Virus record (IMG/VR): IMGVR_UViG_3300025010_002040
Length of the DNA: 33,744 bases
Origin: an uncultured virus (IMG/VR IMGVR_UViG_3300025010_002040)
Lineage: Duplodnaviria > Heunggongvirae > Uroviricota > Caudoviricetes
Strand: one strand, 5' to 3'
The position numbers and the translations under genes are program-made. Every line of letters starts with the position of its first letter. Position 1 is the first letter of the stretch. Positions 9,631 to 9,958 of the stretch are shown here, piece after piece. The notes below the pieces were generated by a model. The model was not told the origin of the DNA, ran no database searches, and saw only the letters and a program-made list of their open reading frames with translations.

Positions 9631-9830
9631 TTAGAGGATAACTCTAAATATTACCAAGAAACTGACCATACAGGTAAAAGGCTTTTAAACTGAGAGAACA
9701 GGTCAAACTCGAAAGAAATCACTACTCATCGACAGAGGTAAAAACGTCGGACATAGAACTAGAAACTGACTAGGTAAAAAAAGGTATGTCGGGTAATGCA
9801 AAGTTAAATTTTTGCATTGCTTTTTGTTTT
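9631..9830 (+). ncRNA. Putative structured sRNA/leader with four AGGU(A/C)AAA-loop hairpins
   Basis: Bounded by a promoter and an intrinsic terminator; repeated AAACTGA...AGGTAAAA units with different but pairable stems; no ORF. Confidence 0.6.
9793..9830 (+). terminator. Intrinsic terminator / attenuator
   Basis: GTAATGCAAAG-TTAAAT-TTTTGCATTGC followed by TTTTTGTTTT. Confidence 0.8.
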
Positions 9831-9865
9831 ATCAATGCATAACCTCTAGAAAAAGGTGAAATGCT

Positions 9866-9958
9866 GTGAGTCTAGATTCTTTAAGAGTAGTGATTTCTTT
9901 AATAGGTTTATTGGTCTCAATTCTCAATCTATTACTTAATTGCAAGAAGAAAAAGTAA
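9866..9958 (+). CDS. 30-aa hydrophobic peptide, type I toxin / holin-like toxin candidate (not in ORF track)
   Basis: AAAGGTG RBS, 7 nt, GTG; MSLDSLRVVISLIGLLVSILNLLLNCKKKK* has one TM helix and a poly-Lys tail. Confidence 0.7.
   Translation: MSLDSLRVVISLIGLLVSILNLLLNCKKKK

Follow-up and report, generated by a model that had tools for sequence, protein, structure and literature searches.

A mobile RNA-peptide module in an Acholeplasmataceae-type prophage: a putative type I-like toxin/antisense pair with a type III-like same-strand layout

The stretch of viral DNA analysed here (33,744 nt, IMG/VR record IMGVR_UViG_3300025010_002040; hereafter the window) carries an HK97-like prophage of an Acholeplasmataceae-type genome with its phage genes on the minus strand. 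The 458 bp between the start of its small terminase gene (terS) and the stop of the open reading frame (ORF) 10041-11225 (positions 9583-10040) carry a module whose features all lie on the plus strand, opposite to the phage genes: a promoter, a structured leader RNA ended by an intrinsic terminator (T1), a linker with a Shine-Dalgarno (SD) sequence, a 30-aa peptide ORF and a second terminator (T2). Sixteen nucleotides of the leader (9712-9727) are perfectly complementary to bases 9885-9900 inside the ORF (9866-9958). This module is best explained as an autonomous, mobile RNA-peptide unit, and we tentatively read it, at a little under even confidence, as a type I-like toxin/antisense pair with a type III-like same-strand layout, the toxin being putative. 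An initial annotation, made from the letters of the window, had pointed out the ORF and its complement, the promoter-like site at 9598-9626 and, at 9791-9822, a hairpin of terminator type with TTTGTTTTAT after it, and had proposed that the terminated leader is itself the antisense antitoxin. These elements were all found in place; the observation was confirmed and its interpretation partly supported.

The complementarity is beyond chance. The two arms, which form the inverted repeat I1, are 100% complementary over 16 nt and lie 157 nt apart, and when the target was shuffled 300 times the longest Watson-Crick run between leader and ORF was 12 (mean 7.5), none of the shuffles reaching 16 pairs (0/300). 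Allowing up to 2 mismatches, the 16-mer occurred in the 33.7-kb window only at the two I1 places (0.02 expected; 0/100 shuffles gave 2 matches), and in the 2.05-Mb genome there were 8 matches vs 9 for the reversed control, the perfect ones being only the I1 pair. Ungapped run counts were preferred to RNAduplex over leader and mRNA, whose very large permitted loops left it without discriminating power.

We collected 18 distinct loci by scanning for exact and degenerate patterns, by BLASTN over 307 genomes of the order and by searching with a pattern of the linker. Repeated matches on one contig were counted once (L145 is the same place as L100), L011/L023, whose contig is cut off after 81 nt of leader, was left out of the count, and it should be considered that some of the IMG/VR and metagenome contigs among the 18 may be the same DNA. 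The loci fall into about four lineages: A (13 nearly identical loci, the window among them), B (L136, L175 and L177), B' (L146) and C (G192, which is L100). The part order common to all lineages is the -10 TATAAT(AT), the leader, T1, the linker CAATNCATARCCTCYAGAARANGGTGA, an ORF of 30-34 codons and the second hairpin terminator, and leader and ORF travel together in 18/18 loci. In L136 the module sits upstream of terS in a related phage; in lineage C it is chromosomal, adjoins no terminase, and none of the 17 ORFs scanned in 19 kb (0/17) matches a phage family. The flanks thus differ among lineages, indicating that the module moves as a unit, and its retention as a unit in such differing contexts (two related prophages upstream of terS; chromosomal) speaks for the toxin/antisense reading. 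No lineage present in the viral collection escaped the degenerate linker pattern. With 9583-10040 as query, BLASTN gave no match in the phage record collection, and over the 307 genomes, beyond G000, G050 and G192, it gave only short, scattered matches with E 5.8e-5 or worse that were taken as noise. A covariance model (R1) run over 151 genomes of the order returned only the three known genomes plus five weak matches (E 0.06-0.99), among which L161, L162 and L163 were discarded as being without the promoter/terminator/peptide layout and coding-like by eye.

The initial annotation had asked whether the 16-mer covaries with the ORF in homologues. A 16-bp leader/ORF run is present in 16/18 loci, all Watson-Crick in the lineage A register in 13 of them and shifted by 2 nt in the other 3. 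L175 has 16 Watson-Crick pairs in the shifted register, and L136 and L146 have one G·U each, arising from different A-to-G changes in the ORF. The register shifts because B leaders read CTCTT vs CTCAT in A, by which two pairs are gained at one end, and the pair at the far end is lost because B ORFs read TCTATA or TCTGTA vs TCTTTA in A. Predicted duplex energies are -24.0, -23.3 and -23.1 kcal/mol vs -5.5 in lineage C; in A, B and B' co-folding is favoured by 15-22 kcal/mol, and the minimum-energy fold of the full-length RNA includes the 16-bp helix in the same three. The antisense segment has a predicted unpaired probability of 0.65-0.76 vs a leader mean of 0.47-0.52. What holds of the proposed antisense antitoxin is a conserved, structured, terminator-ended RNA with a segment predicted to be single-stranded; its pairing is interrupted in L177 and missing from lineage C.

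A perfect 16-bp inverted repeat that flanks 157 bp directly upstream of terS, in a window with recombinase genes elsewhere, might also be read as a DNA-level element, namely the inverted repeats of an invertible segment or a recombination or packaging site adjoining terS. We regard this as very improbable. The orientation of the segment is identical in 18/18 loci, the pairing survives two B-type changes only as G·U, a distinction without meaning for DNA, the arms lie inside a covarying RNA and a conserved ORF, and in lineage C there is no terminase for such a site to adjoin; the inverton was rejected on these grounds.

The leader itself, whose 5' end we infer ~7 nt after the -10, is supported as an RNA by comparison (Table 1). 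Six non-identical leaders folded together with RNAalifold share 43 consensus pairs, of which 5 show changes on both sides, and 96.1% of the cells were paired in the pair-count test. None of 500 shuffles reached the observed number of double changes or the covariation score (0/500), and sliding the partners by 1-3 columns gave at most 1 double change. The 5'-terminal hairpin (P1), the closing helix (P0) and the contact between the 5' end and the linker (X:Z) each gain one compensatory change from lineage C. In P1 this is an A-U to G-C change, accompanied by one G-U, and in P0, which has 6/6 pairs in 6/6 sequences, a C-G to U-A change. The X:Z contact, UAGAGG (9632-9637) with the CCUCUA of the linker (9843-9848), which had been suggested as an alternative partner for the sequence opposing the SD, likewise has 6/6 pairs in 6/6 aligned sequences, with UGGAGG/CCUCCA in lineage C as a compensatory double change. 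The 5' end has, in consequence of these pairings, two alternative, mutually exclusive partners, and both followed its change in lineage C. The hairpin 9730-9749 (helix 5) never varies and is thus uninformative for covariation. At the gathering threshold Rfam gave 0 matches over the whole window, and at E up to 10 it gave five, of 11-21 bits vs gathering values of 50-85, none of them credible; one sub-threshold match, STnc410 (9808-9852), touches the T1 foot and the linker, and the other four lie outside the leader. On these alignments the leader domain of ~165 nt is predicted to be a new conserved structured RNA with several covariation-supported alternative pairings, and it would stand as such even with a non-toxic peptide.

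Table 1. Features of the module and of its genomic surroundings (positions in the window)
Feature	Position	Strand	Remarks
Sigma-70-type promoter TTGATT-17-TATAAT	9598-9626	+	10/12 consensus matches
Structured leader / candidate antisense RNA, ~195 nt	9633-9830	+	from start ~7 nt past the -10 to the T1 U-tract
5'-terminal hairpin P1 (TAGAG/CTCTA)	9632-9646	+	inverted repeat I9; helix 1, 100% paired
X, the 5' arm of P1	9632-9637	+	alternative partner is linker CCTCTA
Closing helix P0, 5' strand ATTACC	9650-9655	+	pairs with 9792-9797
Antisense segment	9712-9729	+	lineage A uses 9712-9727; lineage B register is 9714-9729
Hairpin with SD-like loop, CGAC-AGAGGTAAAAAC-GTCG	9730-9749	+	stem and AGAGGT invariant in all lineages
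Helix P4 (GACATA/TATGTC) around CTAG/CTAG hairpin	9750-9790	+	helix 6; 3/6 pairs changed on both sides
Intrinsic terminator T1, 13-bp stem then TTTTTGTTTT	9791-9830	+	
Conserved linker CAATGCATAACCTCTAGAAAAAGGTGA	9833-9859	+	anti-SD/Z CCTCTA 9843-9848; SD GGTGA 9855-9859
30-aa peptide ORF MSLDSLRVVISLIGLLVSILNLLLNCKKKK	9866-9958	+	GTG start
Antisense target	9885-9900	+	last two bases of codon 7 to middle base of codon 12, RVVIS stretch
Second terminator T2, ends transcription unit	9962-10020	+	inverted repeat I4, folds, alignments
Small terminase (terS)	9238-9582	-	
Large terminase	7601-9238	-	
Capsid, prohead protease, portal, RES-domain insert	window	-	
Two ORFs without known function, HNH gene, S-adenosylmethionine (SAM) synthetase, methylases, GmrSD, integrase, repressors	beyond module		

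The promoter and terminators were followed across the lineages in the same alignments. The -10 TATAAT(AT) is retained in all of them despite differing upstream DNA. T1 has predicted energies of -13.4 kcal/mol in A, -13.3 in B and -7.0 in C; it is likewise present in L136, and the terminator scanner was silent on it in lineage C, where it is weak. At the T2 site a hairpin and a T-run occur in all lineages, with unrelated sequences.

Such a leader could also be a purely cis-regulatory element (an attenuator, or an RNA of the riboswitch or protein-binding type) controlling a small membrane peptide that is not necessarily a toxin. On this explanation, the main rival, the P0-closed domain would set read-through at T1, the 16-bp helix and the switch of the 5' end between its own hairpin and the linker (X:Y/X:Z) would tune how well the read-through mRNA is translated or how stable it is, and the terminated RNA would be a by-product. 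A conserved structured 5' leader with covariation, closed into a multi-helix domain and followed by a terminator and an ORF, was indeed found, and its identity between lineages is 79-89%, loops included, vs 45-62% for the ORF DNA. P0 shares 6 nt (9792-9797) with the T1 foot in A, B and B', where it would form before the T1 3' arm is made (pair probability in the nascent RNA 0.94-0.99, vs 0.46-0.81 in C). Further in line with control in cis are the two co-changing, mutually exclusive partners of the 5' end, an ORF without a separate promoter, and a lineage C that works without the 16-bp helix. In lineage C, however, P0 has no overlap with T1, so that an antiterminator logic may be confined to A, B and B'. 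The leader also matches no described RNA family in Rfam at either threshold, a simple attenuator would not usually have a perfect 16-bp helix whose register shifts in a compensating way, and a 30-aa peptide with its own terminator would be an odd sole cargo for a sensor, while mobility and a location among prophage accessory genes fit a selfish or defence cassette. Taken together, we consider control in cis alone somewhat unlikely.

Other features of the leader bear on how it was first described. The repeat units said to flank the antisense segment amount only to short direct repeats of imperfect match (76% over 21 nt, with exact runs of 10 nt and 9 nt), and Tandem Repeats Finder at a minimum score of 30 reported 0 rows for them. 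Across the lineages, five SD-like motifs and the repeated ACTGAC units do not vary. Four CTAG palindromes occur within 120 nt, at 9759 and 9770 in the leader, 9846 in the linker and 9872 in codon 3, which corresponds to a density of 8 per kb vs 2.3 per kb in the window; these palindromes can pair mutually in several ways, and in lineage C one of them is relocated within the ORF. A likeness of the hairpin 9723-9741 to the terS ribosome-binding region (I3, 74% over 19 nt) does not extend to lineage B phages and was set aside as coincidental.

The invariant motifs allow a further explanation, in which the leader is a dual-function or trans-acting phage small RNA directed at host or phage messages or proteins, for instance via its SD-like AGGTAAAA/AGAGGT motifs, the peptide being an independent second product and the 16-bp match a local autoregulatory extra. 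Besides the SD-like motifs and ACTGAC repeats, leader-only contigs from the RNA libraries of two studies (see below) are in keeping with this, as is lineage C, which keeps the leader segment without an ORF target. The genome, though, holds no more matches to the 16-mer than to its reversed control (8 vs 9, up to 2 mismatches), leader and ORF are never found apart in the 18 loci, and no candidate partner was identified; we therefore judge a trans-acting small RNA to be improbable.

Evidence on transcription came from assembled contigs of RNA libraries, in which DNA carry-over and assembly breaks are possible. In two studies the contigs cover 9656-9841 and 9655-9812 and nothing else of a 1-kb stretch, a contig of a third study (9717-9944) bridges T1, and one of a fourth (9820-10300) is diverged. 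These contigs weakly suggest an abundant leader RNA and the existence of read-through molecules; stretches without contig cover (the ORF in X16 and X17; terS in three runs) are no evidence of absence. The contigs of the two independent studies start at 9655/9656, ~22 nt past the inferred start and inside the P0 5' strand, which could be a processing site or an assembly effect.

An occluded ribosome-binding site (RBS) had also been predicted. The local hairpin concerned (GCAT/ATGC and ACCT/AGGT) does appear in the minimum-energy fold of the full-length RNA, but it has only 4+4 bp, and the SD is predicted to be unpaired with a probability of 0.26-0.44 across the four lineages vs a mean of 0.42-0.47 for the mRNA part, indicating that local sequestration is weak. 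As to the opposite strand, from which a separate antitoxin would have spoken against a same-strand one, no promoter facing the module was found in L136, and minus-strand promoter-like sites in the window and L100 were at chance level and not conserved, the site 10057-10029 lying in the lineage-specific flank. With no conserved opposite-strand promoter, a classical antisense gene is not supported, and the complementary segment lies on the same strand as the ORF. A separate promoter for the peptide mRNA was not evident in the window, L136 or L100.

The peptide ORF is conserved as a coding frame. It is open in 18/18 loci, with 30-34 aa and a start codon, GTG or ATG, whose aligned position is constant, 6 nt after the SD GGTGA, which is kept across loci, and the sole change in length is an in-frame 12-nt insertion in lineage C. 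The peptide is predicted to form one hydrophobic helix with a polar stripe at positions 4, 7, 11, 14, 18, 21 and 25 and a KKKK tail. Relative to the window, peptide identity drops to 37-43% and ORF DNA identity to 45-62%, and nevertheless the hydrophobic core, the basic tail and the polar or small residues at the stripe positions, on one helix face, persist, S18 and N21 being invariant. Nine full-length lineage A sequences have 7 variable ORF sites (4 synonymous and 3 conservative) and, in the leader, one 1-nt insertion and one T-run change; L147 adds two leader changes. These patterns of substitution are good evidence that the ORF encodes a translated peptide, and its size (<60 aa), hydrophobic membrane-type character and conserved frame are those of type I toxins.

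Family searches, proposed earlier for the type I toxins, placed the peptide in none of them. It had no relevant match in Pfam (E up to 10), NCBIfam (E up to 10), PADLOC or PHROGs, and does not belong to Fst/Ldr, Hok, TxpA, Ibs, TisB, Hol_Tox or other described toxin families. A 7-peptide profile, searched against 1.84 billion representatives, returned no protein at E up to 0.001, a result to be read with the low power of a 30-position profile and the fact that short ORFs are rarely called. The closest likeness is to PF16935 (Hol_Tox), in length (27-35 aa), single helix and language-model features: the three best named Atlas matches are clusters with PF16935 on 15-55% of members, and the ten best family-bearing matches share its family or clan. 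The nearest Atlas clusters score 0.80-0.85, within the range of shuffled sequences, and are leads only; those of Hol_Tox score 0.80-0.82, as shuffles reach, and as a Pfam hmmscan at E up to 10 gave no match either, the peptide is not filed as a member.

According to the toxin/antisense reading, one constitutive promoter would drive the structured RNA. Most transcripts would end at T1, giving an RNA of ~195 nt with a 5' hairpin, a 3' hairpin and an exposed antisense segment of 16-18 nt, and a minority would read through to T2, carrying the RBS and the ORF of the 30-aa membrane peptide. The antisense segment would pair with ORF codons 7-12 at about -23 to -24 kcal/mol, in cis, when both lie on one read-through RNA, as well as in trans, by way of the surplus of terminated RNA, and this pairing would keep the peptide untranslated and/or mark the duplex for RNase III, of which family genes are present in the genome. 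As a second switch, the 5' end UAGAGG may alternate between its own hairpin arm and the linker CCUCUA as pairing partners, gating ribosome access, to which the weak local RBS hairpin might add further control. Release of the peptide from this control might come about by processing or differential decay, which are candidates. In this scheme we infer the RNA ends, the ratio of terminated to read-through RNA, the repression by pairing and the toxicity of the peptide. Its most specific form, a one-promoter toxin-antitoxin (TA) design in which premature termination yields the antisense antitoxin and read-through the toxin mRNA, the terminator hard-wires the dose ratio, P0 possibly tunes it and the 5' domain silences in cis, is possible but on balance doubtful; such a one-promoter, same-transcript design would be one not described so far.

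Several observations weigh against this reading. The comparative evidence rests on about four lineages, three of them close kin. In L177 a synonymous GTA-to-GTT change produces an internal U·U and splits the helix into 9+6, and lineage C has no helix despite an intact ORF and leader segment, in which one base is deleted. There the best aligned duplex has -5.5 kcal/mol and the longest Watson-Crick run anywhere is 8, matched by 173/300 shuffles; two alternatives considered for this lineage, the 8-bp GGACUAGA/UCUAGUCC (the same 173/300) and a run of 15 bp rich in A/U, 3 of them G·U, that joins the T1 loop/3' arm to ORF nt 14-28 (4/300 shuffles match), were both unconvincing. Conservation of the leader far exceeds the need of a 16-nt antisense role and, together with lineage C and L177, it keeps the cis-regulatory explanation alive. 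It counts in favour of the reading that the target is the least diverged part of the ORF between A and B (2/18 differences at nt 18-35 vs 33/69 elsewhere, Fisher p = 0.0036, for a region picked after seeing it), but since the target coincides with the RVVIS residues, constraint on the peptide and on the RNA are inseparable, and peptide constraint may explain most of the conservation. Read from the alignment, synonymous sites have changed at 1/5 in the target vs about 3/6 at other conserved residues, a non-significant difference. With its first pair 20 nt past the start codon, the helix falls beyond the stretch normally covered at initiation and would not obviously block it. As no separate promoter for the peptide mRNA is evident, each such mRNA would come with its inhibitor attached, and activation of the peptide would need an extra processing step. 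Finally, the peptide matches no toxin family by hidden Markov model (HMM) or profile, and the scores of the Hol_Tox Atlas clusters are reached by a third of shuffled sequences.

Among described systems, TisB/ShoB/ZorO-type toxins are small hydrophobic peptides whose primary mRNA may be translationally inert, hok mRNA is kept silent by long-range intramolecular pairing, its fold-back, and attenuator- or riboswitch-derived small RNAs such as SreA are terminated leaders that also act in trans. The hok fold-back and SreA are mechanistic analogies to the module only. By analogy, the module would work most like the short-pairing type I systems, with an RNA predicted to pair with a candidate toxin mRNA from the same locus. 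In RalR/RalA of the E. coli rac prophage, as described in the sections consulted of PMC4041452, 16 nt of complementarity inside the toxin coding region suffice, and the likeness extends to a prophage-borne locus and an adjacent antitoxin that does not overlap the toxin gene. RalA, however, has the opposite orientation and its own promoter and depends on Hfq, and RalR is a DNase (PMC4041452), whereas the RNA of the module lies upstream on the same strand, shares its promoter with a membrane peptide, and no Hfq gene was found in the genome (93.8% complete). The divergent systems TisB/IstR-1, ShoB/OhsC and ZorO/OrzO, which pair over 18-21 nt (cited in PMC4041452), share with the module a small hydrophobic peptide and limited contiguous complementarity; their antitoxins have their own divergent promoters and pair with the 5' untranslated region, whereas in the module the pairing falls inside the ORF and there is one promoter.

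The layout, on the other hand, recalls type III systems (ToxIN, CptIN, TenpIN), in which promoter, antitoxic RNA, terminator and toxin gene lie on one strand and the terminator sets the RNA-to-toxin ratio, as set out in the relevant parts of PMC3401426. The module has a promoter, an RNA, a terminator (weak in lineage C) and a gene in the toxin position on one strand. Type III antitoxins, however, are true tandem repeats, bound and cut by a protein endoribonuclease toxin (PMC3401426), whereas the module has only imperfect, dispersed units and no tandem array, its contact would be between RNAs, and its 30-aa product has no Pfam or PADLOC match and is not an endoribonuclease of the ToxN, CptN, TenpN or AbiF type. 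AbiF with its RNA RCd22 in Clostridioides difficile is also prophage-borne, but there the RNA contacts a large protein through abiF motifs and so neutralises it (PMC12373285), and the module has neither the motif nor the protein. The resemblance to CreA, once suggested for a guide-like segment between repeats, was not borne out: none of the 37 window ORFs scanned against Pfam matches a Cas family (0/37), the flanking units are not CRISPR-like repeats, and there is no crRNA-like guide between CRISPR repeats near cas genes. As the module does not conform to an opposite-strand antitoxin, a known toxin family, a tandem array or a protein RNase, we file it as a variant of the type I idea, outside the described families, rather than a member of one.

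In the parts of the literature consulted we found no case of a same-strand or co-transcribed type I antitoxin, which is not proof that none is in print, and for phages of wall-less Mollicutes-type bacteria no study of RNA regulators or TA systems. A search protocol for type I TA loci looks for an opposite-strand RNA gene, according to the part of PMC12390103 consulted, and a same-strand, terminator-delimited antitoxin would thus be invisible to such searches; were the module validated, the ways of finding type I loci would widen. If the reading is true, the module links a type I mechanism (an RNA that pairs with an mRNA) to a type III layout (RNA, terminator, toxin) and is a small natural circuit with the ratio of inhibitor to target fixed by one promoter and one terminator, and a membrane peptide in wall-less Acholeplasma-type hosts could by itself serve abortive infection, prophage maintenance or lysis.

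Within the prophage the module is an accessory insert. Among 80 terS-relative loci the peptide ORF is present in 7 and the leader start in an eighth, a cut-off contig, and in phages with terS 85-93% identical other genes occupy the site. In L026-L040 (terS 79-93% identical) quite different small genes are found at the same site upstream of terS, and several of these phages share a GC-rich motif, TTTCAAAATTTTTGCCTTGCG...AAGAGCCC, which might be a cos region and which in lineage B follows the module. Two uncharacterised ORFs on the minus strand, 10041-11225 and 11307-11909, lie between the HNH gene and the module and form with it a variable slot upstream of terS; one has 394 aa and no family, and the other has 200 aa, an HEXXH motif and weak matches to PhageMetallopep/DUF5960 and to PADLOC capP.

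Elsewhere in the window, a RES-domain protein (6716-7597, minus strand; Pfam RES E 2.6e-7, with a weak NCBIfam Res_ParT_toxin match) is encoded between the portal and large-terminase genes; it resembles a toxin-type insert within the packaging/head module, with no obvious Xre partner adjoining. The regions 12199-13347, 14906-16135 and 16937-23336 encode a SAM synthetase, a ParB-methylase fusion, a GmrSD-type nuclease, two Dam-like methylases and an HNH_2 protein, which makes the prophage dense in modification and anti-restriction/defence genes. The same phage region occurs at 97-98% identity in G050 (L002), a genome of family f4, the genome of the window being of f1 in the same order, and in L144, an Izemoplasmatales-labelled contig, suggesting a broad host range or mis-binned contigs. 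Positions 902-20057 of the window map to genome contig C15, with 1-901 and 20058-33744 outside it; as the window contains no N and exceeds this contig, it derives from a longer version of this DNA.

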